Under the pieces are notes generated by a model that made no database searches, was not told where the DNA came from, and saw nothing but the letters and a program-made list of their open reading frames with translations. This document shows positions 6,236 to 41,216 of a stretch of 53,852 bases of DNA, one piece after another. A program made the position numbers and the translations under genes. The stretch lies in NCBI GenBank assembly GCA_003552525.1, contig PUNF01000189.1, positions 1 to 53,852 of the forward strand. Direction: 5' to 3'. The stretch is from Clostridia bacterium. Lineage in GTDB: Bacteria; Bacillota; Sulfobacillia; SLMV01. Each line of letters opens with the position of its first letter. Position 1 is the stretch's first letter.

Positions 6236-8583
6236 GACTCCTCCTCCTCGCCTGCTGCGGCATCCTTGGTGTCATCACGTTCGGCACGATACTGCGAACG
6301 GGTGAGGAGCACCTCGCGGGGTTTGGATCCCTGGTACGGACCCACAACACCCATGTTCTCCATGGTATCCATCAATCGTCCGGCACGCGTGTAGCCGACG
6401 CGAAGCCGGCGTTGCAGCATCGAGACGGACGCCTCACCCGCCTCGAGCACGACCTCGACCGCCTCATCGAGCTTGGGATCGCTCGCATCACCGGAGTCGG
6501 CCGACCCGCCCTCCGAATCGGCCGCTTCCGCGGCTTCGATCACCTCGCTTCGATACTCGGGATCCTCCTGTTGACGTGCATAGTCGAGCAGGCGTTCGAG
6601 GTCATCATCCGACAGGAAGCTGCCCTGGGCCCGGATGGCCCGATCTCGTCCCACCGGGGAGAACAACATGTCTCCGTGTCCCAGCAGTTTCTCGGCACCA
6701 CCGGCATCGAGGATGGTACGCGAGTCGGCGGAGGAGGATACGGCGAAAGCAACCCGCGACGGGATATTGGCCTTTATGACACCGGTGATCACGTCTACCG
6801 ACGGACGCTGCGTGGCGACCACGAGGTGAATACCGGCGGCTCGCGCCATCTGGGCGAGCCGTTGTATGGCATCCTCGACGTCCACCCGGGCCACCATCAT
6901 CAGGTCCGCGAGCTCGTCGATGATGATCACGATGCGGGGAATGGTAGGTTCGCCGCGATCGCGCGCGCGACGATTGTACGCGGGAAGATCGCGCACACCC
7001 CGCTCGGCGAAGTGTCGATAGCGTCGCTCCATCTCCTTGACCGCCCAGGTCAAACAACCCGCAGCCTTCTTGGCGTCGGTGACCACCGGCGCCAAAAGAT
7101 GTGGCAATCCGTCGTAGGTCATGAACTCGACCACCTTGGGATCGATCAACAAAAGCTTTACCTGGTCGGGTCTTGCGCGCATGAGGATGCTGGCGATGAC
7201 ACAGCGAATGGATATGCTCTTACCAGAACCGGTTGCGCCGGCGATGAGCACATGCAACAGGTCCTCGAGGCTTACCACGAGTGGCCGTCCGGTGATGTCA
7301 GCCCCGAGGGCGACACTGAGAAGGCTTTCGTGTTCCAAAAACTCGCGACTTTCCACGATCTCGCGGAGCGTAACCGAGGCCACCTCGCTGTTGGGGACCT
7401 CGATACCGACCGCGGACTTGCCCGGGACCGGCGCCACCACGCGCACCCCGGTGGTCGCCATACTGAGGGCGATATCGTCGGCAAGGGATACGATCTGGGA
7501 AACCTTTACGCCCGGCCCAGGATGAATGTCAAACCGCGTAACGGTAGGCCCGTGGCTGATCTCGAGGACGCGGGCTCGGATCCCGAAGTCCTTCAACGTG
7601 GATTCGAGCAACCTCGCCTTGCGGTTCAATTCACTACGCGTATTGTCACCCAATTCCCGTCCCCCGCTTCCGCGGCTGATTAGGGTGGCCGGGGGTAGTC
7701 GATATTTCGTGGAAGAAGGCGTCTCGCGGGCTTCCGCACCGACGGGCAGCGTGTCCTCGCTTTTGGTCGCGGTACCCGCCGACGGCGCGGGCTTTGCAGT
7801 ACCGGTGCGGCCCGCCTTATCGCCGTTGGTTTTCGCGGTCGTCGATGGACGGGACGCCTCATCATCTCGCCCCGGTTCCTCTTCACCCCGGGTTGTATCC
7901 CCGGGGTACGTACGGATGGCCACCTCGCGCGTAGCGTCGGAGGCGTCCCGGCCTCCTCGCTTGCGGGACACACCCGTTGTTGCAGCTTGACTCTCTCCCC
8001 GCCTGGAATCGCCCACTCCGCCCGTGACGCGCGCGAGCAAGCCTTTCGCGGTCTCCAGGGTGGCGGCGCCGATGCGCATCCCGGGTACATTGACGAGAAG
8101 GAGCGCGGCCACCAGCGCACCCGAGAATAGGATAACCGACCGCCCCACGGGCCCAAAAGCCGCCGTCAGGGCCCATGCCAGGCCGGCACCCACGTAGCCA
8201 CCCCCATCCCGCACGAGATCGAGGGTGAAAGGGGGCTGGCTGCTCCGGGCCACCTGGTAGAAAACGGCGGCCACCAACCCACCCAGCGCCAACCCCCCGA
8301 CGCGCGGTAGTAGCCGATCCGCCGCGACGTTCATGACCCACGCGAGGCCCGTCACCGTCACCAGTACCGGCAAGACCCAGGCCGCACGCCCCAGGGCGGT
8401 GGTCATGAGCAAGCGCAGTGCTTCTCCGATGAATCCCGGCGCGGGATGATATAGGGCCAGGAACAACAGCGCGCTCAACGCCAGGGTAATCAGTCCCTGG
8501 ATCTCCGTCCGCACACCCCGATCTACGTTCCAGTTGTCGGATCCTTTGGCCTTTTGCCCCTTGCCCTTTTTCCGGGCTGCCAT
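6232..8583 (-). CDS. ftsK: DNA translocase FtsK/SpoIIIE
   Basis: N-terminal TM segments, a Pro/Thr/Ala-rich linker, Walker A GATGSGKS, IIIDELADLMM, and a C-terminal winged-helix gamma domain (SVSMLQRRLRVGYTRAGRLMDTME). Confidence 0.95.
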   Translation of the reverse strand: MAARKKGKGQKAKGSDNWNVDRGVRTEIQGLITLALSALLFLALYHPAPGFIGEALRLLMTTALGRAAWVLPVLVTVTGLAWVMNVAADRLLPRVGGLALGGLVAAVFYQVARSSQPPFTLDLVRDGGGYVGAGLAWALTAAFGPVGRSVILFSGALVAALLLVNVPGMRIGAATLETAKGLLARVTGGVGDSRRGESQAATTGVSRKRGGRDASDATREVAIRTYPGDTTRGEEEPGRDDEASRPSTTAKTNGDKAGRTGTAKPAPSAGTATKSEDTLPVGAEARETPSSTKYRLPPATLISRGSGGRELGDNTRSELNRKARLLESTLKDFGIRARVLEISHGPTVTRFDIHPGPGVKVSQIVSLADDIALSMATTGVRVVAPVPGKSAVGIEVPNSEVASVTLREIVESREFLEHESLLSVALGADITGRPLVVSLEDLLHVLIAGATGSGKSISIRCVIASILMRARPDQVKLLLIDPKVVEFMTYDGLPHLLAPVVTDAKKAAGCLTWAVKEMERRYRHFAERGVRDLPAYNRRARDRGEPTIPRIVIIIDELADLMMVARVDVEDAIQRLAQMARAAGIHLVVATQRPSVDVITGVIKANIPSRVAFAVSSSADSRTILDAGGAEKLLGHGDMLFSPVGRDRAIRAQGSFLSDDDLERLLDYARQQEDPEYRSEVIEAAEAADSEGGSADSGDASDPKLDEAVEVVLEAGEASVSMLQRRLRVGYTRAGRLMDTMENMGVVGPYQGSKPREVLLTRSQYRAERDDTKDAAAGEEEES

Positions 8584-8638
8584 GCAATCCCTCCACGCTT
8601 CGGCACTCTTTCGTCAGCTGATCGGTTTCGTATCCTCG

Positions 8639-10027
8639 CTATTGCCTGGACTTTTTGAACAACAGGAAGTCCTCGGGATCGACGACGCGAACGTTCAGGC
8701 CGGTCTCCCGCGCAGCCGGCTCACCCTTGGCCGTGGTGATGATGGTACCACCATCCCCGTACACGATTCCATGCGCCATCACGATGCGTCCACCCACGAT
8801 CGTCATCACGGGCACGCCCAGGTCCTCGTCGACCACGGTGATGTCGGCGTCCGCGCCCTCACCGAGATGACCCTTGGTCGCCAGCCCTAGCATGCGCGCA
8901 CCAGCTGTCGACGTCTTGAGAACGAATTCATCCAGGCTGAGGGCACCATAGCGCACGAGGGCCAGTCCATGTTCAACGGCCACGTTACGCGGGATCCCGC
9001 CACCATCGGTCGAGATGGCATCAACGACGAATTCTCCCGATGCGTCCTTTCGGGTGGCACACAGGAAGCTGGCCTCCGGCTTGTTCACCGGGAAACTCAT
9101 CGAGACATCGGTATCCCGATCCTCCCATACGGACACGCCACGGCTTCCAGTCACCAGGACGGTATAACCACCCTCCTCGATCTGGACCTGTCCGTATCCA
9201 TCGGCAATCGCCGCGCGCAGACCCGCGCGATCCGGTGCGTAGCCGGCCATCTTGAGGCAATTACGGGTGACATGGCTCGTGGGAGCACCGTCGTCACCAA
9301 TCTTACCCCCGGTCCCATTAATGATGGAGAGATAAGACTCCGAGACCAGGTTCCTCTTTCCTTCGAGTGCACCCAGTCCCTCCAAGGCCTCCCGGACGGG
9401 ATCATCGGTAATTCCCCTGAGGTAACTGTTCACGTGCGCAACGTGTAGACAATTCGAACCCGCGAGGGCGACGGCTTCCAGTAACCCGCGCAGGTGACTG
9501 CCCGTTTCCGTGCTCCCGACGTGGAAGGCAACGTATGCGTGAACTTCATTGGCCAGGGCGATGAATTTCTCCGTCGCGGCGGGGCTGGATGGATTGTGGC
9601 CACCGATCAACTTGATACCTATCGATCCCTCGGTTAACGCCTTTTCGATCAGGCGCAATCCCTCTTCCCGGCCTGGTGGTGCATCGGGATATGCCGGCAT
9701 AGTTCTGAGGGCGGCGATATTGAGTCCCGCACCACTTGAGGGCATGGCGGTCAGCACGTCCCCGCCATCGGCCATATCCAGTGCCGTACATATCCCGGCG
9801 CGGGCCATCATGCGATGGGCTGGACCCCGGATATGTACGTGGGTATCAATGACTCCGGGAAGGGCCGTCAATCCCTCGAGATCTACAACCTGGGCGGCCT
9901 CTGCGGCGGGGAGGTCTTCCCCGATTTCAACCACTTTTCCGCCGGAGACACCGATGTCGACGATATCATCCCTGGCGTGCGTGGGGTCGACGATGCGGCC
10001 CCAACGAAAAAGGACGTCATATTTCAC
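8639..10027 (-). CDS. Amidohydrolase-superfamily metallohydrolase (specific substrate not assignable)
   Basis: N-terminus KYDVLFRWGRIVDP..GKVVEIGEDL..LPGVIDTHVHI carries the HxH metal motif. GTG 10027 is preceded by GGGGGAAGGAAG; the alternative ATG 10075 would place a 17-bp palindrome inside the coding sequence. Confidence 0.68.
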   Translation of the reverse strand: MKYDVLFRWGRIVDPTHARDDIVDIGVSGGKVVEIGEDLPAAEAAQVVDLEGLTALPGVIDTHVHIRGPAHRMMARAGICTALDMADGGDVLTAMPSSGAGLNIAALRTMPAYPDAPPGREEGLRLIEKALTEGSIGIKLIGGHNPSSPAATEKFIALANEVHAYVAFHVGSTETGSHLRGLLEAVALAGSNCLHVAHVNSYLRGITDDPVREALEGLGALEGKRNLVSESYLSIINGTGGKIGDDGAPTSHVTRNCLKMAGYAPDRAGLRAAIADGYGQVQIEEGGYTVLVTGSRGVSVWEDRDTDVSMSFPVNKPEASFLCATRKDASGEFVVDAISTDGGGIPRNVAVEHGLALVRYGALSLDEFVLKTSTAGARMLGLATKGHLGEGADADITVVDEDLGVPVMTIVGGRIVMAHGIVYGDGGTIITTAKGEPAARETGLNVRVVDPEDFLLFKKSRQ

Positions 10028-18645: not shown

Positions 18646-19022
18646 TCCTCCCGGGGATCCTCCACGTCATGCTCCTCCTCGTGGATGTTTCGCAGTAGTT
18701 CTTCGATGCGCTCGGCCTTCTCGGTCGTGCGGTCCAGTTCGAATACGATCTCGGGGACGTACTTAAACCGCGTCCGTTTACCGAGCTCCCGCTTGATGTG
18801 CCCGGTCGCGTGCTGCAGTGCCTCCATCGCCTCCCACCGCTGCGATTCGTCTCCCAGGACCCGCACGAACACCTTGGCGTGGCCAAGATCCGGCGACAGG
18901 TCCACCGCCACGACGCACGCCATACCCACGCGGGGATCCTTGAGCTCACCGGCGACGATGCGACCGACGACGCGCTTGATTTCCTCCGACATCTTCCGTA
19001 CGAAGTCTTGTCCGGCCATCAT
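18636..19022 (-). CDS. rbfA: Ribosome-binding factor A
   Basis: RKMSEEIKRVVGRIVAGELKDPRVG..VDLSPDLGHAKVFV..KYVPEIVFELD. ATG ATG at 19022 lies just below the infB stop; the upstream part of the track ORF overlaps infB. Confidence 0.9.
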   Translation of the reverse strand: MMAGQDFVRKMSEEIKRVVGRIVAGELKDPRVGMACVVAVDLSPDLGHAKVFVRVLGDESQRWEAMEALQHATGHIKRELGKRTRFKYVPEIVFELDRTTEKAERIEELLRNIHEEEHDVEDPREECP

Positions 19023-19056
19023 TATCACCCGTCCAGACCGATACCGCCGGCATACG

Positions 19057-21222
19057 CTAGACGCGCGGTACCTCTTCGATCGTGTAGGCCTCGATTTCGT
19101 CTCCCACGTGAATGTCGTTGTAATTCTCGATCCCCAGGCCGCATTCGTAACCGGACGCGACTTCCCGGGCATCATCTTTAAAACGCTTCAGCGACGCGAC
19201 CTCGCCATCGTGGATTACCCGTCCTTCGCGGAGCAGGCGTACCCGCGCATTGCGGCGCATCACGCCGTCGGTCACGTATAGGCCGGCAACGTTCCCCGCA
19301 CTCGGGACGCGGAACACCTCGCGCACCTCCGCGCGGCCCAGGACGACTTCCCGTTGCTCGGGATCGAGCAGGCCCTTGGCGGCCTTGTCGACATCGTCAA
19401 GCATCTCGTAGATGACGCGGTACGTCCGGACGTCCACGCCGATCTTATCGGCCGATCGTTGTGCCCCACCGGTCGGTCGCACGTTGAAGCCGAGGACAAC
19501 GGCATCGGATGCAGACGCGAGCATGATGTCCGACTCGTTGATGGCCCCTACGCCACCGTGAATCACGCTGACGTTCACCTCATCATCGCTCAGCTGTTGT
19601 AGCGCGGTGGAGGCGGCGTCGAGCGATCCGTGTACATCGGCCTTGAGAATGAGGCGAAGTTCGCGGTACTCGTCCTCGCTACGGTAGAAATCTTCGAGCG
19701 ACTTCGGCGTTGCTTGTAGTTCCGTCTGGCGTTCCATGTTTTGCAGTTCCCCGGCCAGGCTCTTCGCCTCCGAGTCATCCGCAAGGGACACGAACACGTC
19801 ACCGGAATCGGGTACTCCACTCAAGCCAAGGACCTCGACCGGAGTGGACGGACCGGCTTCTTCCAGGGCCGCGCCACGATCATCGAACATCGCCCGCACC
19901 CGTCCCGCGTGCACTCCGGCCACGAACGCATCACCCCGGTGCAGCGTACCACCCTGAACCAGAAGGGTCGCGACGGATCCGCGAGCCTTGTCGAGTTCCG
20001 ATTCGATCACCAGTCCGTGGGCCCGCTTGTCGGGATCTGCCGTGAGTTCTTCAATTTCGGCGAGTAGGTTAATCATCTCCAGGAGTTCGTCCACGTTCTC
20101 GCCCTCGAGGGCAGAAATATCCACGTAGATCGTCTCGCCACCCCAGTCCTCGGGCACGAGCTCGTGGGCCATCAATTCCTGGCGAATCCGGTCCGGCTGT
20201 GCCCGGGGAAGGTCGACCTTGTTCACGGCAACCACGATGGGAACACCAGCCGCCTGGGCGTGATCGATGGCCTCCCGCGTTTGCGGCATCACGCCGTCAT
20301 CCGCGGCCACGACCAGGACCACGATATCCGTCGCGCGCGCACCCCGGGCCCGCATTGTGGTGAAGGCTTCGTGCCCCGGCGTGTCGAGAAATACGATCCT
20401 CTTGCCTTCGAACTCGATAGTGGAGGCCCCGATGTGCTGTGTGATGCCCCCGGACTCCTGTTCCGTCACCCGTGTCTTGCGAATGGTGTCGAGCAGTGTC
20501 GTCTTGCCATGGTCGACGTGGCCCATGACGGTGACCACCGGTGCACGGGGCAGTAGGTTATCGGGATTATCGTCTTCGATCCGTTCCGCCAACACACGGC
20601 GATGGGGATACCGTGCATCCTCGGCGTCCTCATCGGACTGCACTTCAAAATCGGCCCCGAGCTCCCGGGCGATGAGTGCCTGGCTTTCTAGGTCCAGCTC
20701 CTGGTTGATGTTGGCCATGATACCCATCCCGACGAGATGCTGCATGAGCTCGAGAGGACCCACGTTCAACTTCTCCGCCAACTGCGATACGCTGAGCGGG
20801 CCTGAGAGCACGACTTTCTCCACGCGTGCCCGGAAGGACCTGTCCTTGCGGCGATCCCGGCGACCCCGAGAACGCCGCTTCTCGGCGGCTTCGGTACCGG
20901 ACGGCTTGCGTTTGCGAGTCGTCTTGGGAGTGGCTTCTTCCTCTTCCTCCGCCTCCGGCTCCGCCTCTGCTTCGGCGGTTTCGACGGCAGCCGGAGCCCC
21001 AGATTCTTCTTCCGCAGGCGTCGCATCCGGGACCTGCGTGTCAACGGCGTCTTCGGATTCTTCCGTGACCAAATTCCTGATGCGCTCCGCCACCTGCGGG
21101 TTAATGGTCGACATGTGATTGCTGACATCCAGACCCAGCTCATCCTGTAGCAGGGTCAGGACCTCCTTGCTCTGAATATCGAGTTCCCGCGCCAACTCAT
21201 ACACGCGAATATTTCGCGCCAA
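19057..21222 (-). CDS. infB: Translation initiation factor IF-2
   Basis: Charged N-terminal region, G-domain [14 protein letters not shown] / DTPGHEAF / NKVD, and a C-terminal beta-barrel. TTG start with GGAGGTGA upstream. Confidence 0.97.
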
Positions 21223-32663: not shown

Positions 32664-34421
32664 TTACAGTCCCAGGGGCCATATCCAAAGCAGTGCCGGC
32701 ACACCCACGAGCACGACAATGATCTCCAGGGGAAGCCCCATTCGCCAGTAATCCCCGAACTGATAGCCTCCCGGGCCCATTACCAGGGTGTTGGATTGGT
32801 GTCCGATCGGGGTGAGGAATGCGCATGAGGCGCCTATCGCCACGGCCATGAGCAGGGGATCCGGGGAGGCCCCCATACCGATTGCGACCCTCAGTGCAAT
32901 CGGTGCGACCAAGACCGTGGCGGCTGCGTTATTGACCAGATCCGACAGAAACATGGTGCCCACCAGCACGATCGTCACTGTCATCCAGGGCGGTGTCCTC
33001 GATGACAGTGCCAATAGACCGTCGGCGATGAACTGCGCGCCCCCGGTGGTCTCGAGGGCGGCGCTGACCGGAATCATCGCCCCAAGGAGGACGATGATCG
33101 ACCAATCGATGCTGTCGTAGATCTCCCTCGGGGCAATCAGCCCAATCAATACCATGGCCAGGGCCGCCGTCACCAGGGACACCTGGGCCGGAACCAGGCC
33201 TACGGCCGCCGCCAGAAGGGCCAGCGCAAATACTCCGCCCGAGGCCATGAGCCTCCGCGGCATGCCGAGTTTCAGTCCGCGCTCCGCCAGCGGCAAGAAA
33301 CCCATTTCCGGGAGTATATCGGCCACCGGTTCCTCACCGACCTGAAGTAACAGGACATCTCCCGCCCTCAGGCGGACATTTCCGAGCCTCCCGCGCAGGC
33401 TGCTGCCCTGGCGAGAGACACCCAGGAGGTTCACCCCGTACCGTCGGCGCAGGTTTAGGTTCACGGCGGTTCTGCCTTCCGCGCGCGAGCCGGGGGCTAC
33501 AACCACCTCCGCCAACACTAGGTCTTCGGGCCTCACTGTCCCCTCCGCGGGATCCGAGTCTTCCGCCATTTCCATCCCGAGGTCATCGGTGAGGTACTTG
33601 AGATTGTCCGTGTCGGCCCGGACTATCAAGACGTCGTCGCGCCGCAGTATGCGCGTGCGAGAGGGTGCCGGCAATCGCCGTTCACCCCTGGCAATCGCCA
33701 CGACCGAGATCTCGTGATCGCCCTCATCGATGGCACTCAGTGGCTTACCCTCAGCGCTCGAGCCTTCCGGAATCCTTAGTTCGGTTAGGTACGTACCGAT
33801 GTCGAACCGGTCCTCCGGCGAGGTGGCACCCTTTCGCCGGGGGACCAGCCGCCAGCCGACCAGGACGATGAAGACCACTCCCGATATCGCGATGAGACCC
33901 CCGACGGGGGCGAACTCGAACATGCGGAAGGCTTCGAGCCCGGCTTCCGCCCGAAAAGTGGCGATGATGATATTTGGCGGTGTTCCGATTAGGGTCGTCA
34001 GTCCACCGAGCAACGAGCCGAAGGCCATGGGCATGAGCAGGCCTGAGGCAGGATTGCCCGAACGGGAGGCGATCTTGAGGGCCACCGGCATGAACAGGGC
34101 CAAGGCGCCGACGTTGTTGATAAACGCGGAGCAGACAGCGACCAAGGAGGTAAGTACCGCGATCTGTATGATCAGGTTGTCGCCCACCCGAGAGACCAGG
34201 CCTACCAGGGCGTCGACCAGCCCCGAGTTAAGAAGTCCCCGGCTGATTATCAACACCGCCGCCACGGTGATGACAGCCGGGTGACCGAACCCCAGGAAGG
34301 CCTCTTCTGCGGGTATCGCGCCCATCAGGGTCACGGTTATCAATCCCATGAGGGCGACGAGATCATATCGGACTTTCGAAGTGGCGAATAATACCAGCAT
34401 CACCGCGAGGATTGCCATCAC
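32664..34421 (-). CDS. SLC13/DASS-family permease with two central TrkA-C (RCK_C) domains
   Basis: N- and C-terminal multi-TM halves (FINNVGALALFMP..; SDLVNNAAATVLVAPIA) flank a soluble duplicated region (LTELRIPEGSSAEGKPL.. / LAEVVVAPGSRAEGRT..). 585 aa. Confidence 0.85.
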   Translation of the reverse strand: MMAILAVMLVLFATSKVRYDLVALMGLITVTLMGAIPAEEAFLGFGHPAVITVAAVLIISRGLLNSGLVDALVGLVSRVGDNLIIQIAVLTSLVAVCSAFINNVGALALFMPVALKIASRSGNPASGLLMPMAFGSLLGGLTTLIGTPPNIIIATFRAEAGLEAFRMFEFAPVGGLIAISGVVFIVLVGWRLVPRRKGATSPEDRFDIGTYLTELRIPEGSSAEGKPLSAIDEGDHEISVVAIARGERRLPAPSRTRILRRDDVLIVRADTDNLKYLTDDLGMEMAEDSDPAEGTVRPEDLVLAEVVVAPGSRAEGRTAVNLNLRRRYGVNLLGVSRQGSSLRGRLGNVRLRAGDVLLLQVGEEPVADILPEMGFLPLAERGLKLGMPRRLMASGGVFALALLAAAVGLVPAQVSLVTAALAMVLIGLIAPREIYDSIDWSIIVLLGAMIPVSAALETTGGAQFIADGLLALSSRTPPWMTVTIVLVGTMFLSDLVNNAAATVLVAPIALRVAIGMGASPDPLLMAVAIGASCAFLTPIGHQSNTLVMGPGGYQFGDYWRMGLPLEIIVVLVGVPALLWIWPLGL

Positions 34422-34566
34422 GGAGAATTGGGCGATGGAATCGGGGATGGCCGATCACCTCTCTTTGGCAAGTCCATGGCTCAAGTTCCCGGGTCGGTGC
34501 GCAGAATATCACTGCCGGCCTCCGGGGAACTTCTCCGCGTTGCCTCGATATCCTACCCCGGGTGCG

Positions 34567-34595
34567 TTGTTCCCACCCAAACCGTTTGCTACACT
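34567..34595 (+). promoter_or_regulatory. Putative promoter of the riboswitch-ECF operon
   Basis: TTGTTC (34567-34572), 17 nt, TACACT (34590-34595). This would place the transcription start about 20 nt upstream of the riboswitch P1. Confidence 0.4.
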
Positions 34596-34625
34596 ATTGG
34601 CATTGACGGTATCGATCCCAGGGAT

Positions 34626-34728
34626 AAATTCTCCGAGTCCGGCTACCTAAGGCGACGGCTAGGGTGGACGGGCCGGCAGGGTTCGCGCGGGAAACCCGGG
34701 AGCCTCCCGTAATTGGAAAGGGGAATTT
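34626..34728 (+). promoter_or_regulatory. Moco (molybdenum/tungsten cofactor) riboswitch candidate, translational type
   Basis: The 3' segment AGCCTCCCGTAATTGGAAAGGGG (34701-34723) is nearly the same as the E. coli moaA leader CGCCUCCCGUAUCUGGAAAGGUG as I recall it. The 5' side carries the conserved-looking CTCCGAG (34631-34637). AAATTCTCC (34626-34634) can pair with GGGGAATTT (34720-34728), occluding the SD. Internal CCGGC/GCCGG and CGGG-AAA-CCCG helices are present. ATG follows at 34733. Confidence 0.65.
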
Positions 34729-34732
34729 GCAC

Positions 34733-35002
34733 ATGCCGCCAGTACAGGCCATTCGCGCCTCGCATCGAGCGCTTGATCACGGTCGCGGTTCGCAACCACT
34801 CTCCCTGGCTTTCACGCACCCGGGATCTGTTCTTTCCCCCCCGCCACCCGATGGGAACGCATGGCGCAGCCCAAGTCCCATGTCATCTCGAGCGTTCTTC
34901 CACCGGAGGGGACGGGATGTGCCCGCGATCGGTGGAAGTGTCAGCACCACTTGTAACGCGGGGCGCGTCACGTTGTCGGTTGGGGATGCGTTGCGATCAT
35001 GA
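34733..35002 (+). CDS. 89-codon riboswitch-gated upstream ORF (hypothetical protein or leader)
   Basis: The ATG is 10 nt after the riboswitch GGAAAGGGG SD. The ORF ends in an ATGA overlap with the S-component start. The product is Arg/Ser/Pro-rich with no recognisable family, so it may serve only for translational coupling. Confidence 0.3.
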   Translation: MPPVQAIRASHRALDHGRGSQPLSLAFTHPGSVLSPPPPDGNAWRSPSPMSSRAFFHRRGRDVPAIGGSVSTTCNAGRVTLSVGDALRS

Positions 35003-35610
35003 CGGAAGGACGTCGCGGATTCTCGCTTCAACACTTCACCATATTCGACCTCATCGTAATCGCCCTGATGGCCGGGCTGGGTATCGCCACGAAACCGATC
35101 GTGGTTCCCCTGGCACACATTATTACCGGGCCACTATTCATCCCCGGGGGCGTACTCGCCGGCGGCTTTTATATGATGTGGATCGTCTTGGCTGCCGCGC
35201 TCGTGGGAAAGCCGGGTACCGCGACACTCGCCGCGGTTGTCCAGGCCATCGTTGTGATGGCGCTGGGCATCTACGGCACACACGGGATCGCCAGCCTCGT
35301 GACCTACGTCCTGCCCGGTGTCGCGGTGGATTTGGTTATGCTGCTGGCCGGGACACGCGCACGATCGCTCCTACCATGCTTTTTGGCCGGCATCGCCGCC
35401 AACATGACCGGTACCTTCCTGGTGAACCTCGCGTTCTTCCGACTCCCCGCGGTCCCCTTGCTGTTGAGCATTTTCACGGCTGCCCTGTCGGGCGGATTGG
35501 GTGGATGGATCGCCTACAGCGTGGCGCAACAATTCTCCCTGGGTACGGGCATGCTGGCCCGATCCGGTGCGAACACGACGCATGATGCAAATGTCCCGAG
35601 GAGGAAATAG
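34999..35610 (+). CDS. ECF transporter substrate-specific (S) component, YkoE-like (COG4721-type)
   Basis: 203 aa with about 6 TM segments. GPLFIPGGVLAGGFYMMWIVLAAALVGKPGTATLAAVVQAIV parallels the B. subtilis YkoE segment ..PIYGIWFIVSVIAAYMIRKPGAALVSEII.. (recalled). Confidence 0.72.
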   Translation: MTEGRRGFSLQHFTIFDLIVIALMAGLGIATKPIVVPLAHIITGPLFIPGGVLAGGFYMMWIVLAAALVGKPGTATLAAVVQAIVVMALGIYGTHGIASLVTYVLPGVAVDLVMLLAGTRARSLLPCFLAGIAANMTGTFLVNLAFFRLPAVPLLLSIFTAALSGGLGGWIAYSVAQQFSLGTGMLARSGANTTHDANVPRRK

Positions 35611-35611
35611 T

Positions 35612-35905
35612 ATGAGCAGGGGGTTCTGGATCTCCGTATTGGTCATAGCCGGAATCGTGGCTATACTGGCCTTCCTGTTTGCGGATGCACCTCCGCCAAA
35701 CCATCAATCCCGTATGCCGCGGGATGACGAGGCCATGCCAAGGGTGGCAACCGGGGTCCATACCCCGGCGACCCCACCCCGCTTCGGGGAACGGGCCCCG
35801 GAATCACCCGACGGTGCCCTCGGTGAAACCGGCGTTACGGGCGCAGCGGATCACCACTTTCTCGTACAGGACGCGATGCGTTCTACGGCAGGCAGTGGTG
35901 CATGA
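35612..35905 (+). CDS. Small single-pass membrane protein (97 aa), hypothetical
   Basis: GGAGGA lies 7 nt upstream. N-terminal TM segment FWISVLVIAGIVAILAFLF is followed by a Pro-rich tail. The start is 1 nt after the S-component stop and the end overlaps the ecfA1 ATG (ATGA). Confidence 0.5.
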   Translation: MSRGFWISVLVIAGIVAILAFLFADAPPPNHQSRMPRDDEAMPRVATGVHTPATPPRFGERAPESPDGALGETGVTGAADHHFLVQDAMRSTAGSGA

Positions 35906-36624
35906 TGGAAACGCTACTTTGTGCCAGCGGCCTCGGGTTCCGCTTTCGTCCCGGCGCACCCCCGCTATTTGACGAGGTGGATCTGGCGCTGCAGCCGGGC
36001 CAGGTCACCGCCATCATCGGACCGAGCGGTAGCGGGAAGACGACGCTCTGCCACTGCCTCAGCGGCATCATTCCGTTGCTCCGAGGTGGCGAGACCTGGG
36101 GATCGGTCACGATCAAGGGAAAACCCGTGGATCAGATGCGCATCCCGGAGATCGCGCGCAACCTGGGCATGGTGTCCCAGGACCCCGAAGCCGGCCTATT
36201 CTTCCCCGTGGTTGAAGATGAAGTTGCGTTCGGCCCCGAGAACCTTTGCCTAGAACCTCCCGTCATTCGAGCGCGCATCGATGAGGCTCTAGGGAACGTG
36301 GGAATCACCGATTTGCGCCTGCGAAATCCCCACCGGCTGTCTGGCGGAGAGAAGCAACTCGTGGCAACGGCTTCCGTGTTGAGCTTACACCCGGAAATCC
36401 TCATCCTCGACGAGGCGCTATCGCAGCTCGACGGACGTGGCCGCTGGATGATGGAACGCTTGATTCTTCGGCTGCGCGCAACGGGCAAGGCGATTCTCAT
36501 GGTGACGCATGATCCGAACCACCTCGATGTGGCCGACCACACCTTCATTCTTTCAAACGGACGGCTCTCCCCTTTCCACGGTGACTGGGCTGCATTTCCC
36601 GCGGGACCGGAAGGAGCATGCTGA
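35902..36624 (+). CDS. ECF transporter ATPase component (EcfA1-like)
   Basis: Walker A GPSGSGKTT, signature LSGGEKQ, Walker B ILILDEALSQLD, H-loop THD. Confidence 0.9.
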   Translation: MMETLLCASGLGFRFRPGAPPLFDEVDLALQPGQVTAIIGPSGSGKTTLCHCLSGIIPLLRGGETWGSVTIKGKPVDQMRIPEIARNLGMVSQDPEAGLFFPVVEDEVAFGPENLCLEPPVIRARIDEALGNVGITDLRLRNPHRLSGGEKQLVATASVLSLHPEILILDEALSQLDGRGRWMMERLILRLRATGKAILMVTHDPNHLDVADHTFILSNGRLSPFHGDWAAFPAGPEGAC

Positions 36625-36625
36625 G

Positions 36626-37282
36626 GTGATCAAGGCAGATCGGGTCAGCTATCGCTATGCGGACGGGACAGCCGTGCTACACGATATCGACCTGCAACTG
36701 TCCGCCGGAGAAGTCGTGGGGCTTTTGGGACCAAACGGTTGTGGGAAGACGACGCTCGGGAAAGTGCTCGCCGGTATTCTCAAGCCCACCAGCGGTCAAG
36801 TGATCATCGACGGTCTCCACAGCAGCGACCTCTCGCTAGGGGTAATCGGACAACGTATCGGGTACCTCTTCCAGGAGCCGGACCGGCAACTGTTCACCGG
36901 ATCGGTGATCGAAGAGCTTTACTTCGCCCCGAGGTTGCGTGGGACACCGGAAGAGGCGCTCATCGAGCGCGCGGCCGAAGTACTGTCTCGTTTTCGACTC
37001 GAGCACTTGCATGAAGCGTTCCCGTATACCCTGAGCAGGGGGGAAAAACAGAGGCTGGCGCTCGCCGCTCTCATGATGAACCGGCCGTCATATTTTGTGC
37101 TGGACGAGCCGACCACCGCGTTGGACATCCGCCGCAAGGAGGAACTGTCGCGACTGATCGAGGAGCTGAAAGGCGAGGGCGTGGGAATGCTCCTGATCAG
37201 CCACGATCGGCGCTTTGTGAGACGGCACGCCCACCGTGTCATTGGATTGAGAGAGGGTCGGATACGTCTTGATTCCCAATGA
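36626..37282 (+). CDS. ECF transporter ATPase component (EcfA2-like)
   Basis: GTG 36626 lies 9 nt after GGAAGGAG and 1 nt after the ecfA1 stop. Walker A GPNGCGKTT, signature LSRGEKQ, Walker B FVLDEPTTALD, H-loop SHD. Confidence 0.9.
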   Translation: MIKADRVSYRYADGTAVLHDIDLQLSAGEVVGLLGPNGCGKTTLGKVLAGILKPTSGQVIIDGLHSSDLSLGVIGQRIGYLFQEPDRQLFTGSVIEELYFAPRLRGTPEEALIERAAEVLSRFRLEHLHEAFPYTLSRGEKQRLALAALMMNRPSYFVLDEPTTALDIRRKEELSRLIEELKGEGVGMLLISHDRRFVRRHAHRVIGLREGRIRLDSQ

Positions 37283-38039
37283 TTCTGCCACCCTCCAACA
37301 CTTCGATCCCCGGGCGAAACTCATCCTGGTCCTGAGCATTTCTTCGCTCGCGGTAGCCTTCAACCATCCGATTGTTCTCCTTCCCCTGTCGGCGGTCACA
37401 TTCCTGGCGGCTCGTTTCTTCGGGGTACAAATCCTACGGGCAATGTCCAGCATTCGACGCCTACTGTGGGTGTTCGTTGCAATGGGAATGATCCAGAGTG
37501 TCTTCACGCCCGGCGGTGAAGCAGTGCTCGCGGTGGGAGGCATATCACTCGTGTCGACCGTCGGCCTGGTGCGCGGTGTATCGATCATCCTGCGCATAGT
37601 CGTCATCGTAGTATCCGCCGCGATCATGACCACCGCCAATCCCCGTGACATCGTACAGGGGCTATCGCAATGGCGCATCCCATACGAGATCACCTTCATG
37701 GTGGCCGTGGTCCTTCGATTTTTGCCGCTGATGCGAGAGGAAGCCGAGGATACGCTCACGGCACTGCAACTGCGCGGCGTTCGCCTGGAAACCCTGCCCC
37801 TGCGCACCAAGATACGGATCTATCGGCACCTGTTGTACCCACTCATCGCCAACGTATTGAGCCGTGCGGAAAAGATGTCGATATCCGTGGAGATGCGGGG
37901 ATTTCGCGCATACCCACAGCGAACCAGTCATCGCAACCTCGTTTTTTCACCTCGGGATTACGGGGTCATCGCGACATCGATCCTGATCGTCATGGGAGTC
38001 CTGCTCCCGTACTACTGGAATTGGCTACCAACGTCCTGA
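37269..38039 (+). CDS. ECF transporter transmembrane (T) component, CbiQ/EcfT family
   Basis: N-terminal FDPRAKLILVL, a multi-TM body and ALQLRG-type coupling-helix motifs (TALQLRGVRLE; SVEMRGF). TTG start overlaps the ecfA2 end by 14 nt. Confidence 0.88.
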   Translation: MIPNDSATLQHFDPRAKLILVLSISSLAVAFNHPIVLLPLSAVTFLAARFFGVQILRAMSSIRRLLWVFVAMGMIQSVFTPGGEAVLAVGGISLVSTVGLVRGVSIILRIVVIVVSAAIMTTANPRDIVQGLSQWRIPYEITFMVAVVLRFLPLMREEAEDTLTALQLRGVRLETLPLRTKIRIYRHLLYPLIANVLSRAEKMSISVEMRGFRAYPQRTSHRNLVFSPRDYGVIATSILIVMGVLLPYYWNWLPTS

Positions 38040-38054
38040 ATGGGGAGATGATCC

Positions 38055-38837
38055 ATGTCCACGCGCGTACTCGCCGTCACCGGCATCTCCGGCAGCGGCA
38101 AGACCACCACCGTCGAAGCGATCATTCGTGAACTCCGTAAGCGGCGGTACTCGGTGGGATCGGTCAAGGATATCCACTTCGAAGATTTCGCGATGGATAC
38201 CGTGGGCACCAACACCCACCGGCACTACCAGGCGGGGGCCGAGATCGTGACCGCCGCCGGCATGTACGAAACCGATGTCTTGTACAAGCGCAAACTGCCC
38301 ATCCGAGAGATCCTCTCGCATTACTCACAGGATTTCGTCATCCTCGAGGGAGTCATGGACCCCACCATCCCCCGGATCATTACCGCACACCCCGATTGCG
38401 AAATCGACGAGTTGATCGATGGTCCGGTCTTCGCGATCGCGGGACGAGTGGCCTCGTCCATCTGCGATCACGAGGAGCTTCCGGTCTTCGATGCCCGCCG
38501 GCAGGCCGAGGACCTGGTCGACCTCATCGAGTCCGTCATAGGGCCGCCCCTCCCAGGCGTTCCCGCCGAATGCTGTAGTGCGTGTGGATATTCGTGTGCC
38601 GAGTTGACCAAACGGATCCTACGCGGACAATCTACACACGCCGATTGCCCCGTCGTCACGGCCCCCCGTGTGCGATTGAGGATCGGAGACGAACAGATAC
38701 CGATGGTGCCATTCGTGCAGGCCATCCTAGAAAACGCCGTACGGGGTGTTGCGCGGGAACTCGACGGGTATCGCGAAGGTGCATCGCTCTCGGTCAAAAT
38801 CGATGGGCGCGGTTGTTTCGAGGTCGATGGGGCCTGA
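38055..38837 (+). CDS. mobB: MobB-like P-loop protein fused to a Cys-rich Fe-S-type domain and a C-terminal extension
   Basis: N-terminal half VLAVTGISGSGKTTT..GSVKDIHFEDFAMDTVGTNTHRHYQAGAEIV follows the MobB pattern (G.SGSGKTT..IKH.hH.f..D..GkDs.r...AGA). Residues about 165-200, LPGVPAECCSACGYSCAELTKRILRGQSTHADCPV, resemble the CxxCGYxxC..CP putative Fe-S domain of RnfB-type proteins (PF04060, recalled). Confidence 0.72.
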   Translation: MSTRVLAVTGISGSGKTTTVEAIIRELRKRRYSVGSVKDIHFEDFAMDTVGTNTHRHYQAGAEIVTAAGMYETDVLYKRKLPIREILSHYSQDFVILEGVMDPTIPRIITAHPDCEIDELIDGPVFAIAGRVASSICDHEELPVFDARRQAEDLVDLIESVIGPPLPGVPAECCSACGYSCAELTKRILRGQSTHADCPVVTAPRVRLRIGDEQIPMVPFVQAILENAVRGVARELDGYREGASLSVKIDGRGCFEVDGA

Positions 38838-38924
38838 CGACGAGCGGGGTCTTCCGCTATATTGGGGATGTCGCCGGTGGTATATCGAAGTCGCGGCGCG
38901 TTGTCGCGAAGACGGGGGATGATT

Positions 38925-39689
38925 ATGCGTTTACTCTGCTGGAATGTCAACGGACTCCGCGCGGCCGTTCGCAAGGGTTTTCTCGAATGGCTGGTTGAAG
39001 AGCAACCGGATATCATGTGTGTGCAGGAAACCAAAGCACAGGAGGCGCAGCTGTCGGACGCCATCCGTAACGTCGAAGGATACCATTCGTACTTCGCCTC
39101 GGCCGAAAGAAAGGGGTACAGCGGGGTCGCCGTCTACAGCCGCGAAAACCCCCTCGAGGTCGATGATGCCGTCGGTGACCCGATCCTCGACGCCGAGGGC
39201 CGCCTACTGAGGATCCGGTACCCGGCATTCACCCTGTACAATATCTATTTCCCAAATGGTAAGGCATCGCAGGAACGACTCGACTACAAGATGGATTTCT
39301 ACGAGCGATTCCTCGCTTACATCCAACGGGAAGTGGACGCCGGTGAGGAGATCATCGTTTGTGGTGACGTCAACACCGCGCATAGGGAAATCGACCTCGC
39401 GCGCCCCAAGGAGAACGAGACCATATCGGGCTTCCTACCCGAGGAACGCGCGTGGATCGATCGTTTTCTCGCGCTGGGTTTTTCCGATAGCTTCCGCGTT
39501 TTCACGCCGGAAGCCGGGCATTACACCTGGTGGGATCTGAGAACCCGTGCGCGCGAACGCAACGTGGGCTGGAGAATCGATTACGTATTTGTAACCGACG
39601 GCCTCAGGACCCGCTTGGAGGACGCCTTCATCCTCCCCGAGGTCGAGGGTTCCGACCATTGCCCAATCGGTATATCGCTCGGGACGTAG
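38925..39689 (+). CDS. xth: Exodeoxyribonuclease III
   Basis: MRLLCWNVNGLRA.., CVQETK, GDVNTAHREIDL, WWDLR and GSDHCPI. ATG 38925 lies 5 nt after GGGGGA. Confidence 0.92.
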   Translation: MRLLCWNVNGLRAAVRKGFLEWLVEEQPDIMCVQETKAQEAQLSDAIRNVEGYHSYFASAERKGYSGVAVYSRENPLEVDDAVGDPILDAEGRLLRIRYPAFTLYNIYFPNGKASQERLDYKMDFYERFLAYIQREVDAGEEIIVCGDVNTAHREIDLARPKENETISGFLPEERAWIDRFLALGFSDSFRVFTPEAGHYTWWDLRTRARERNVGWRIDYVFVTDGLRTRLEDAFILPEVEGSDHCPIGISLGT

Positions 39690-39725: not shown

Positions 39726-40961
39726 TCACGGTTGCCGAAGCGTACCCGAAGCGTCGAACTGCACCGCAATGGGGTCATCGGCGATGGATACGTCGCCAAA
39801 CAATGCGCCGCGGAGTCCCTGGCTGATCCATAGGCGCTCGAGGTCGCGCGTGTTGTCGATCAGCGCCAACTTGGGATCCCGTGTCGGGGGGATCGCCGCG
39901 CTCGCAAGGGATGCTCCTATGGCATCGGCATCGTTGCGCATGATGATGGGGATCATCGCTCGCATCGTCAGCGTGCTAGCCAGTACGTTGGTGTAAGTGG
40001 GCTCGGGATCGATCTCGCGCGCGAGTCGATAGGTGATCAGGTCCACGAGGCCCACCCCCGTCGCGTTCCCGTGGGACGCCCGGGAGAGGTCCAGGGCGCA
40101 GATCCGCGCGATACGAGGATCCTGATCATCCGCGGCACCCTCGACCCGATAGCGACCGATCACCCCGGTATCCACCCCGGTACCCGAGAAGTTCTTCCCC
40201 ATTTCGCGTATGACCAGCACATCGGCCTCATCGAAGGGAAGGCGAGGGGCCAAATCCTTCGACAACGCGAGCAAGCGGCGTTCGCGCGCAAAGAGTTCTG
40301 CGGGGGGAACGCCCTCGATGGTATGAAGGGATCCCACGGCATTCTCCACCAGTCCGATACCCCCGACCAAGCGAACACGCCCGAGGACAATTCTCGCCAT
40401 CGCCTCCAGCTCATCCGACATCGCCGCGGGACCACACTGGTGAAAGGACTCTGCCCCAGCCTGGTGACCCAGGCCCACCACGAGTTTTTTTACCAACCCA
40501 CTCTCGATGTCTCCCCTGGCCGTCGTGTGGCTCTTGATCCGATTAACCAAGACGATACCGTCGGCTTCCATGGCCCGGGGATCGCAATAGACCGACAGAC
40601 CCCGGTCGGTCTGCCCCAGCCTTTGGACGTCGCATGAGGTGATCACCGGCACACCCACGGCAGAGGGCGTAATCCCGAGCGATTCCAACACGGCACGTTG
40701 CCCGGACTCGGTGCCACCACCGTGTGACCCCATCGCCCCCAGGATGGACACGCGAAAGCCCCGGGCCGTCAACTTCCCGCAGACCTCCCGAAGCACCGTG
40801 GGAATGTCGGCAATCCCTCGGCTACCCGCGGTCACCAGGATCTTCGACCCGGCAGGGAGGTCATCGAGGGCCCGAAGTCGCTCCAACGCTCCCTCGACAC
40901 TCCCGGCTATGTCATCTAGAGGCTCCCCACAAAAACGCTGACGGACCTCCCAGAGGTTCAT
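39726..40961 (-). CDS. LarA-N-terminal-like (DUF2088-type) domain protein, function unknown
   Basis: About 410 aa. KILVTAGSRGIADIP..ILGAMGSHGGGTESGQRAVLESLGIT.. and NRIKSHTTARGDIESGL resemble the lactate-racemase-like domain family. The assignment is tentative. The track ORF extends to 41069. Confidence 0.45.
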   Translation of the reverse strand: MNLWEVRQRFCGEPLDDIAGSVEGALERLRALDDLPAGSKILVTAGSRGIADIPTVLREVCGKLTARGFRVSILGAMGSHGGGTESGQRAVLESLGITPSAVGVPVITSCDVQRLGQTDRGLSVYCDPRAMEADGIVLVNRIKSHTTARGDIESGLVKKLVVGLGHQAGAESFHQCGPAAMSDELEAMARIVLGRVRLVGGIGLVENAVGSLHTIEGVPPAELFARERRLLALSKDLAPRLPFDEADVLVIREMGKNFSGTGVDTGVIGRYRVEGAADDQDPRIARICALDLSRASHGNATGVGLVDLITYRLAREIDPEPTYTNVLASTLTMRAMIPIIMRNDADAIGASLASAAIPPTRDPKLALIDNTRDLERLWISQGLRGALFGDVSIADDPIAVQFDASGTLRQP

Positions 40962-41216
40962 CAACCGACGTAGGTCACCCCCGGGGTGGCCATGACCCCG
41001 AAACGATTCTGAAAACAACAATTCGCACCCCTCATTTCCCCGGATCCAGCCGACCGTTCTATTGCACACGATTCACCGATCGAGACCGGGCGATTACTTC
41101 GCCGAACGAGGCATTCTTCGCCGGTTAGCGGCCGGAACCTTGCAAGGAACTTGCAGGTTCACCGCGGCCGATCTTGAATAATGGGCTTAGAGATGAAGCA
41201 ATGGGGGGGAATTCTG

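Follow-up and report, generated by a model that had tools for sequence, protein, structure and literature searches.

The 53,852-base contig PUNF01000189.1 of a Clostridia bacterium (called the window here, meaning this whole stretch of DNA) carries on its forward strand an RNA element of the RF01055 family, the Moco RNA motif, followed by an operon for an energy-coupling factor (ECF) transporter. We find, with high confidence, that this RNA, a riboswitch without the P3 hairpin, controls a dedicated ECF transporter belonging to a conserved module related to the molybdenum and tungsten (Mo/W) cofactors. As to what the transporter does, the gene content of the module gives roughly even chances to an importer that is repressed by the cofactor and whose substrate is of pterin type, be it molybdopterin, the molybdenum or tungsten cofactor itself (Moco or Tuco), or a precursor or fragment of these. 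The features of the operon, each with the evidence for its assignment, are as follows.

34619-34739 (+): RF01055 riboswitch aptamer (Moco RNA motif), P3-less, of the proposed Tuco class; Rfam covariance model
34733-35002 (+): leader open reading frame (ORF) of 89 codons; read from the sequence
34999-35610 (+): S component; PF09819, 52.3 bits
35612-35905 (+): 97-aa ORF, putative anchor remnant of a PruR-like protein; similarity to the anchor in the closest relative (locus L002)
35902-36624 (+): ECF ATPase A (EcfA-like); PF00005, 94.5 bits
36626-37282 (+): ECF ATPase A′ (second EcfA-like); PF00005, 113 bits
37269-38039 (+): EcfT/CbiQ T component; PF02361, 119.2 bits
38055-38837 (+): MobB-like P-loop nucleoside triphosphatase with a Cys-rich Fe-S-type domain and a C-terminal extension (MobB/FeS), last gene of the operon; PF03205, 67.7 bits

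A P3-less RF01055 riboswitch in front of the ECF genes

The match to RF01055 spans model positions 1-135 and scores 70.5 bits (E = 4.6e-15), about twice the gathering score of 36; in the Rfam scan, no other family exceeded its gathering score anywhere in the 53,852 bases. An earlier reading of the DNA made from the sequence alone (the sequence-only reading) had proposed a Moco RNA motif at this place on the strength of a 5′ CUCCGAG and a 3′ GCCUCCCGUAAUUGGAAAGGGG. Both cores are present in the aptamer and agree with the RF01055 consensus, and no other riboswitch class fits. The same scan gave no match in the window to the thiamine pyrophosphate (TPP) riboswitch (RF00059), and the THI-box core CTGAGA, which the sequence-only reading had not seen in the leader, is indeed missing from it.

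Folding of the isolated aptamer results in P1, P2, P4 and P5, with a P1 of 9 bp (34626-34634 paired with 34720-34728). In the Rfam alignment the P3 hairpin (model positions ~59-74) is deleted, P4 beginning three bases after P2 closes, and P3 is missing from the aligned leaders of relatives too (26 of 26). The absence of P3 places the RNA in the P3-less class, which Regulski 2008 found to track tungsten-cofactor genes and proposed to sense Tuco rather than Moco (PMC2408646), an assignment made likewise in a 2024 study of Eubacterium limosum (PMC11725836). The window RNA resembles this subclass in its full-length match, its complete set of conserved cores and its P1/P2/P4/P5 architecture, and differs from it in what lies downstream, ECF genes being new for this riboswitch: published RF01055 regulons comprise moa/moe/mob, modABC, tupABC, W or Mo enzymes, "Fe ABC" (ATP-binding cassette) transporters and focA, and no ECF system (PMC2408646, PMC3766115 supplement, PMC11725836).

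A covariance model (R1) made from the 26 relatives' leaders, all without P3, scores the window aptamer at 76.7 bits. Across 55 homologous leaders, whose alignment was fitted to R1 and is therefore biased toward its structure, 93.6% of cells pair, compared with 37-47% in slid controls, and 20 of the 26 aptamer pairs vary on both sides.

A promoter-like TTGACG-16-TAAATT lies at 34603-34630 (+), with the -10 box falling within the 5′ strand of P1. These hexamers are probably not the operon promoter, because transcription starting there would truncate the aptamer; to judge by sequence conservation, the true promoter probably lies further upstream, near a TGCTA...CT.TT block shared with L002.

The ECF transporter and its S component

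The cistrons are as tightly chained as had been described, with ATGA overlaps (34999, 35902), one-base gaps (35611, 36625), an overlap of 14 nt (37269-37282) and, ahead of the MobB/FeS gene at 38055, a gap of 15 nt. The earlier identification of two ECF ATPases, an EcfT and a MobB-like protein with a Cys-rich Fe-S-type domain also holds, on matches to PF00005, PF02361 and TIGR00176. ATPase A contains a Walker A motif (GPSGSGKTT), an LSGGEKQ signature, a Walker B motif (ILILDE) and an H-loop (THD); its best NCBIfam model is TIGR04520 (ECF_ATPase_1; 178 bits, under the equivalog cut-off). The best models for A′ are TIGR04520 and TIGR04521 (~162 bits, under the equivalog cut-offs). A′ starts at a GTG one base past the stop of A, with the Shine-Dalgarno (SD) sequence GGAAGGAG 9 nt upstream, and homology to its orthologues begins at the residue encoded by this GTG. 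Both ATPases are intact (Walker A/B, signature, H-loop) and co-encoded with S and T, and EcfT carries two X-Arg-Gly coupling motifs (ALQLRG and VEMRGF). The five protein genes of the operon in the window are intact and coding-like in composition, judged by GC at each codon position. With an S fold (below), a PF02361 T component and two intact ATPases in one operon, the system is a group I (dedicated) ECF transporter.

The S protein scores 52.3 bits against PF09819, the YkoE family model, and a profile of its subfamily found no PDB sequence at E <= 1, so that folds had to be compared instead. The AlphaFold model (pLDDT 84.9) has seven helical segments and best matches 5EDL, the S component YkoE of B. 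subtilis, with TM-scores of 0.69/0.71 at 18% identity. Its top fold matches are all ECF S components (5EDL, 5KBW, 4TKR, 4HZU_S and 6ZG3_C), RibU, ThiT and PanT coming after YkoE. The model thus places the protein among the ECF S components, on a distant branch and not as a YkoE orthologue; the earlier label of a YkoE-like S component stands for family and fold, and does not extend to orthology.

Exhaustively searched with HMMER, 1.84 billion cluster representatives yielded 356 clusters at E <= 1e-3, which makes the S subfamily a small and isolated one. Orthologues are 60-74% identical and ~185 aa long, and most contain a Cys-rich loop, R-H-R-G-C-C-x-G-C-C-F. Residues 117-128 of the window protein (35347-35382) read G-T-R-A-R-S-L-L-P-C-F in its place; the family can therefore do without this motif.

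The PF09819 match, together with public annotations that call some orthologues "thiamin/hydroxymethylpyrimidine transport system permease", might suggest an ordinary YkoE-type transporter for thiamine or hydroxymethylpyrimidine whose Mo/W associations are coincidental. We regard this as almost certainly wrong: the leader has neither a TPP riboswitch nor CTGAGA, there are no thi genes among the annotated ORFs of the window, the S protein is only 18% identical to the YkoE structure within a subfamily of 356 clusters that reaches no solved structure by sequence, and linkage of RF01055, PF00174-like proteins and MobB/FeS recurs over dozens of genera.

Having S, T and two ATPases in an operon under a riboswitch for a finished cofactor, the system resembles other riboswitch-controlled group I ECF transporters, such as YkoEDC under THI-box and CbrTUV/BtuFCD under cobalamin riboswitches. 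It differs from the YkoEDC/CbrTUV type in the riboswitch itself (RF01055, not THI-box or B12), in the low identity of S to YkoE, in the tethered or fused extracytoplasmic binding domain that its relatives add, and in ending with MobB/FeS. By the usual description, ECF systems need no binding protein.

The MobB domain of that last protein passes TIGR00176 (84.8 bits, cut-off 76.2) and PF03205 (67.7 bits, cut-off 26.6), has the P-loop GISGSGKTT, and aligns to the MobB crystal structures 4NKR, 2F1R and 1NP6. In these respects it is like MobB of E. coli and B. subtilis, from which it differs by an added Cys-rich PF04060-like domain and C-terminal extension, and by being encoded not beside mobA but as the last gene of a transporter operon. 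PF04060 scores 19.8 bits in the window protein and 22.4 in the orthologue of Alkaliphilus peptidifermentans (L009), both under the cut-off of 23; it is precomputed for several other orthologues, and the window and L009 proteins share the pattern CCxxCxxxC...C (CCSACGYSC...C in the window). The uncharacterised PRK14494 "MobB/FeS domain-containing protein" group is related but distinct, the window protein scoring 136 bits, under the cut-offs of all four PRK14494 "MobB/FeS" models.

Conservation of the module

The S subfamily is present in 343 species (one genome per species scanned). Carriers are anaerobic Bacillota (Alkaliphilus, Natronincola, Natranaerobius, Clostridium aceticum, Halanaerobiales, Pelotomaculum and Syntrophomonas), together with some Dehalococcoidia and metagenome-assembled genomes (MAGs) labelled Sumerlaeota. 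We fetched 80 loci from these species. The R1 search found 55 riboswitches in 51 loci, in tandem in three of them, every one upstream of S and on the S strand, so that orthologous S genes sit under riboswitches of RF01055 type and not under THI-boxes. Counted over the informative loci, those fetched with enough flanking DNA, a P3-less riboswitch precedes S in 51 of 70, S is followed by A-A′-T in 53 of 56 and T by MobB/FeS in 48 of 56, and a PruR-like gene is present in 63 of 69. Three refuting outcomes had been named beforehand, concerning the RF01055 score, THI-box linkage and MobB linkage; each was tested and none occurred. The attribution of the operon to Mo/W-cofactor biology is likewise borne out, by the riboswitch class and by PF00174/PruR-like proteins that are encoded in the relatives' operons and are sometimes fused to S.

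The closest relative, L002, has an S protein 73% identical to that of the window, and synteny extends down to xth past the operon. Most relatives have ~2 kb between S and the first ATPase. The full operon, as found in A. peptidifermentans (L009) and C. aceticum (L081), begins with the riboswitch, an FMN_bind lipoprotein and one or two larger PF00174 lipoproteins ahead of S. After S come a membrane-anchored phosphodiesterase of the nucleotide pyrophosphatase/phosphodiesterase (NPP)/alkaline-phosphatase type, a small anchored PF00174 protein, A, A′, T, MobB/FeS and a small RIO/APH-like kinase. No accessory protein of the operon reaches the cut-off of any curated NCBIfam model. By sequence, the phosphodiesterase retains the NPP catalytic motifs, and the FMN_bind lipoprotein bears a flavinylation-type TGATVTS motif. 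Minimal operons without redox partners occur in the window and in L002, L003, L037 and L038.

Two other arrangements were observed. In a Pelotomaculum MAG (L051, 4347-10467), tandem riboswitches precede genes for, in this order, an ApbE flavin transferase, S and an S-layer-anchored protein of 1225 aa that combines PF00174-like modules with Shr-like HID domains and SLH repeats; no ECF A/A′/T genes lie nearby, and the arrangement suggests surface capture from macromolecular sources. In L001 (528-5949; also L006, L010, L017 and L022), genes for a DUF364/DUF4213 protein ("heavy-metal chelation"), an FmdE-like protein, a small PF00174-like protein, FecCD, an ABC ATPase and Peripla_BP_2 lie directly upstream of S. 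No riboswitch was found within the 6 kb fetched at such loci, where the operon may begin further upstream.

A candidate pterin-binding partner of the S component

In L002 the slot between S and A encodes a protein of 170 aa that combines a transmembrane anchor at its N-terminus with a PF00174 domain (sulfite oxidase family molybdopterin-binding). The 97-aa ORF of the window, which the sequence-only reading took for a single-pass membrane protein, matches this orthologue in the anchor only (25 residues, 56% identity, E = 1e-5). The S-to-A gap is 292 nt in the window vs 613 nt in L002, and a relaxed six-frame search for a frameshifted PruR-like domain hidden there found the anchor and nothing else. 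Because only the anchor matches, no domain remnant remains in any frame and the gap is shorter, we read the ORF as the stump of a ~170-aa PruR-like gene whose domain has been deleted: the membrane anchor was correctly recognized, but the protein is not a family of its own. Its GC periodicity is not coding-like, and its ATGA coupling to ATPase A is retained. Since the five genes of the operon are intact and coding-like, and loci of Pelotomaculum, Syntrophomonas and Formimonas are also without a PruR-like domain, the window copy is probably functional, with decay possible.

A profile of the small PF00174-like proteins finds PDB 7KOM as its best solved structure (E = 1e-4), with 7KOS and 7KOU also matching. 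The AlphaFold model of the L002 orthologue (pLDDT 92.6) again best matches 7KOM (TM-score 0.73), followed by the Moco domains of chicken sulfite oxidase and YedY. PruR (7KOM, 7KOS, 7KOU, 7RKB), of the PruR-DcpA biofilm pathway, is a periplasmic protein of truncated sulfite-oxidase (SUOX) fold that lacks the Mo-ligating Cys and holds pterins sandwiched by a Tyr and a Trp (PMC11194511). By this best match, the relatives' accessory protein would be of pterin-binder type, a membrane-anchored protein of truncated SUOX fold.

The two have in common a domain of ~135 aa with a truncated SUOX fold, secretion or anchoring, and the missing Mo-ligating Cys. No Cys is conserved among the small anchored proteins, 19 of 46 being free of Cys altogether, and the sole conserved Cys of the larger PF00174 proteins, which are lipoproteins or secreted, is that of the lipobox; with no other conserved Cys, the Mo ligand of sulfite-oxidase-family enzymes is absent. 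Our reading of the sequences places a Ser-Ser-Gly motif roughly where it would be. A D-G-Y motif, invariant in the accessory family, aligns with N-D-Y of PruR, and W160 near the C-terminus, which may or may not be the counterpart of the PruR Trp, is nearly invariant. The accessory proteins differ from PruR in sequence (16-20% identity), in occurring in Bacillota rather than Proteobacteria, in having Ser (of SSG) at the reported position of the PruR Trp, and in their partner, an ECF transporter rather than a DcpA-type cyclic di-GMP enzyme; in the window, the domain is deleted.

The exhaustive search also found, in independent protein clusters, S proteins fused through an extra transmembrane helix to a PruR-like domain (P0290, P0295, P0298 and P0349) and, through an extra hydrophobic helix, to the phosphodiesterase (P0285, P0287 and P0292), although individual cases among these fusions (P0283-P0298, P0349) may be gene-calling errors. 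The C-terminus of ECF S components is cytoplasmic, as solved S components show, and the extra helix would therefore place the attached domain on the outer side of the membrane. No other evidence speaks as strongly as these fusions for S working directly with an outward-facing domain of pterin-binder type.

The secreted PF00174 lipoproteins and the FMN_bind lipoprotein with its TGATVTS motif in the larger operons, and ApbE in L051, raise the question whether the module serves extracytoplasmic SUOX-like or FMN-binding proteins instead of uptake, through cofactor export or loading or in extracellular redox reactions or sensing, the riboswitch tying output to cofactor supply. PruR itself is a signalling and not a transport protein (PMC11194511). 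We nevertheless consider such a role very unlikely. The PF00174-like proteins, lacking the Mo-ligating Cys, are unlikely to be enzymes needing cofactor insertion; the overlap of P1 with the SD is an OFF-switch arrangement, in which acquisition genes are repressed when cofactor is plentiful; and the minimal operons have no redox partners. Characterised ECF transporters are importers.

Leader ORF and expression platform

The 3′ strand of P1 overlaps an SD-like GGAAAGGGG (34715-34723), much as the SD of the E. coli moaA leader lies within the 3′ strand of its P1. The 9-bp P1 thus does bury an SD, as the sequence-only reading had it, but this SD serves the leader ORF, whose ATG at 34733 is 9-10 nt 3′ of it, and not the S gene, 270 nt further downstream. 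The leader ORF ends in the ATGA overlap with the S start. It had been listed among the ordinary cistrons, a view that does not hold. GC by codon position is 0.64/0.66/0.60, compared with ~0.63/0.45/0.72 in real genes, so coding periodicity is lacking; Pfam and NCBIfam searches gave no family match; and there is no protein similarity to the counterpart in L002. We therefore rejected it as a conserved protein.

ORFs of 83-91 codons nonetheless span the distance from the aptamer end to the ATGA overlap with S in the window, L002 and L003, and by our own rough estimate, made with no tool, the chance of a frame staying open that long at this GC is ~0.07. Folding of whole leaders (window, L002 and L003), with and without a locked aptamer, showed no consistent change in accessibility of the S start, which gives no support in this clade to a simple sequestor of the S-gene ribosome-binding site. 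A search of 34300-39100 revealed no intrinsic terminator after the aptamer beyond chance. Given no terminator and no conserved sequestor, we infer that coupling runs through translation of the leader ORF, which would probably be translated as a coupling or polarity device.

Other expression platforms may exist among the relatives. An anti-SD-like CAUCUCCUUU element, not found in the window, stands 20-35 nt after GGAAAGGAG in L013, L034, L035, L038 and L047, and could pair with the aptamer 3′ strand or a downstream SD, making a platform other than that of the window. About 100 nt past the aptamer, a conserved leader block (L002 5850-5870, L003 2835-2855) ends in a small CUCC...GGAG hairpin (CUCCUCGAGGAG in L002, CUCCUUCGGGAG in L003) with no clear counterpart in the window; this hairpin may be part of the expression platform.

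Coexistence with a tungstate uptake-type operon in C. aceticum

A TupA/TupB-like operon and a FecCD importer flank the ECF operon of C. aceticum (L081), each of the three with its own P3-less RF01055 riboswitch, all in one 12-kb cluster. The relevant features are:

8530-8652: P3-less RF01055 riboswitch
18676-18800 (-): P3-less RF01055 riboswitch
19017-19136: P3-less RF01055 riboswitch
2743-2943: cobalamin riboswitch
959-2182: moeA, 7 kb away

The TupA model was the only match of its protein (260.9 bits, under the strict equivalog cut-off). The binding protein of the FecCD importer (Peripla_BP_2) resembles heme, B12 and siderophore binders, and the FecCD systems of C. aceticum and of L001-type loci probably correspond to the "Fe ABC" transporters that stand under Tuco riboswitches in E. 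limosum (PMC11725836). One riboswitch class thus fronts both an ECF and a FecCD/BtuF-type importer in some carriers, as in cobalamin uptake. Relative to ModABC, TupABC and WtpABC, the ECF system shares the riboswitch family and the cofactor pathway but not the architecture, these being binding-protein-dependent type I ABC importers, and the two kinds coexist in C. aceticum. The idea that the ECF system replaces ModABC or TupABC therefore fails in the sole carrier checked, where, on gene content, the module looks like an added function rather than a replacement for tungstate uptake.

The sequence-only reading had left metal and pterin cofactor side by side as possible substrates, and the evidence favours the latter. 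Import of the metal, be it in the form of tungstate, of molybdate, of a thio-oxyanion or of a complex with a chelator, with MobB/FeS helping to pass it on to cofactor synthesis, is in our judgement unlikely, though several observations fit it. RF01055 classically precedes modABC and tupABC (PMC2408646; PMC3766115 supplement). The CCxxCC loop of many S orthologues could bind thiophilic species, L001-type loci put DUF364, FmdE and a siderophore-type ABC importer in the cluster, and many carriers are MAGs with isolate names that suggest sediment or digester origin, where Mo/W speciation is perhaps unusual. However, the window S lacks the CCxxCC motif, and a TupABC-like system under the same riboswitch class adjoins the ECF operon in C. 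aceticum. The closest S fold is YkoE, and YkoE-related ECF S components carry organic micronutrients, whereas known metal ECF systems use the unrelated CbiM/NikM components. The conserved outward partner has a pterin-binder fold, in some genomes fused to S, and is not an oxyanion-binding protein, and neither an NPP-type phosphodiesterase nor a kinase has an obvious role in oxyanion uptake.

Proposed mechanism

A pterin-type substrate is favoured on four grounds: the capture domain is of pterin-binder type and in some genomes fused to S; the NPP-type enzyme would suit the stripping of dinucleotide cofactors of their nucleotide; the APH/RIO-like kinase would suit a renewed phosphorylation of the imported molecule, comparable to what thiamine kinase does with thiamine; and a TupABC-like tungstate system already exists next door. 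We infer an OFF switch, inward transport, the class of substrate, and the roles of MobB/FeS, phosphodiesterase and kinase, as follows. When Mo/W-pterin cofactor is plentiful (Tuco, if the P3-less assignment is right), it would bind the aptamer and stabilise P1, which would occlude the SD and start codon directly 3′ of the aptamer. Translation of the leader ORF would be blocked and the operon turned off through lost translational coupling or Rho-type polarity; when cofactor is scarce, the operon would be expressed. S would then capture the substrate and dock on EcfT-EcfA-EcfA′, which would power import, with the MobB/Fe-S protein as cytoplasmic receiving or processing partner. In relatives, an outward-facing tethered PruR-like pterin-binding domain would feed S, the NPP-type phosphodiesterase would trim dinucleotide forms of the cofactor, and the small kinase would re-phosphorylate the imported molecule. 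The window would hold a minimal version from which the capture domain has been lost.

Several points weigh against this proposal. The window itself has no PruR-like domain, phosphodiesterase or kinase, so the case for a pterin is drawn from its relatives, and its own copy could be a reduced or decaying one. Given how labile Moco and molybdopterin are, a pool of them in the environment is plausible in anoxic habitats only. MoeA is encoded close by in carriers such as C. aceticum. The P3-less class is assigned to Tuco as a proposal that rests on correlation, not on measured binding specificity. No conserved RNA structure joins the aptamer to the ribosome-binding site of the S gene in the leaders folded, and no terminator was found there; the repression step from aptamer to operon would depend on a leader ORF with no coding signature and is the weakest part of the mechanism.

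Genomic surroundings in the window

The rest of the window is Bacillota core chromosome (infB, nusA, rimP, pnp, RNase J, ftsK, ndk, S-adenosylhomocysteine hydrolase and 2-oxoacid:ferredoxin oxidoreductase). Its annotated ORFs include no other Mo/W genes, no mobA and no oxyanion-binding protein or type I ABC permease, and a search for accessory genes of the module elsewhere in the window found none. The divergent upstream gene at 32664-34421 (-) encodes a 585-aa CitMHS/SLC13-type permease with two TrkA-C domains and has no evident link to the operon. Downstream, after xth, a 447-aa ORF at 39726-41069 (-) has no Pfam match at E <= 1e-4.

Implications

We know of no bacterial transporter for molybdopterin, Moco or free pterin, and bacteria are, to our knowledge, thought to obtain Mo/W cofactors only by importing oxyanions and making the pterin themselves. 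Each part of the system is of a known kind (riboswitch family, ECF transporter, MobB, PruR-like fold), while their combination and a pterin-cofactor substrate for an ECF transporter are apparently undescribed; we found no link between RF01055 and an ECF system in open-access full text, though an earlier mention elsewhere is possible. A 2026 review describes how pterins cross membranes as unexplained (PMC13259868). With somewhat less than even confidence, we propose the module as the first dedicated prokaryotic importer of a Mo/W pterin cofactor or of the metal-free pterin, which would combine PruR-like capture, NPP trimming, ECF import, return to use by kinase and MobB/FeS, and repression by a Tuco riboswitch.

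In 2008, "sulphite oxidase" genes under P3-less RNAs in S. wolfei were an unexplained exception (PMC2408646). It is possible that they are PruR-like genes such as this module contains; if so, that anomaly may be explained. If the proposal is true, Moco or Tuco salvage and cross-feeding among anaerobes would parallel the B12 and thiamine economies, and the cofactor would join the shared "public goods". MobB-like proteins would gain a functional context, ECF transporters would extend to systems with tethered or fused binding domains, and public annotations (thiamine or cobalt permease, "molybdopterin-dependent oxidoreductase", "MobB") would be corrected. A conserved, riboswitch-controlled ECF module with capture domains of pterin-binder type is a concrete and testable candidate for pterin transport.

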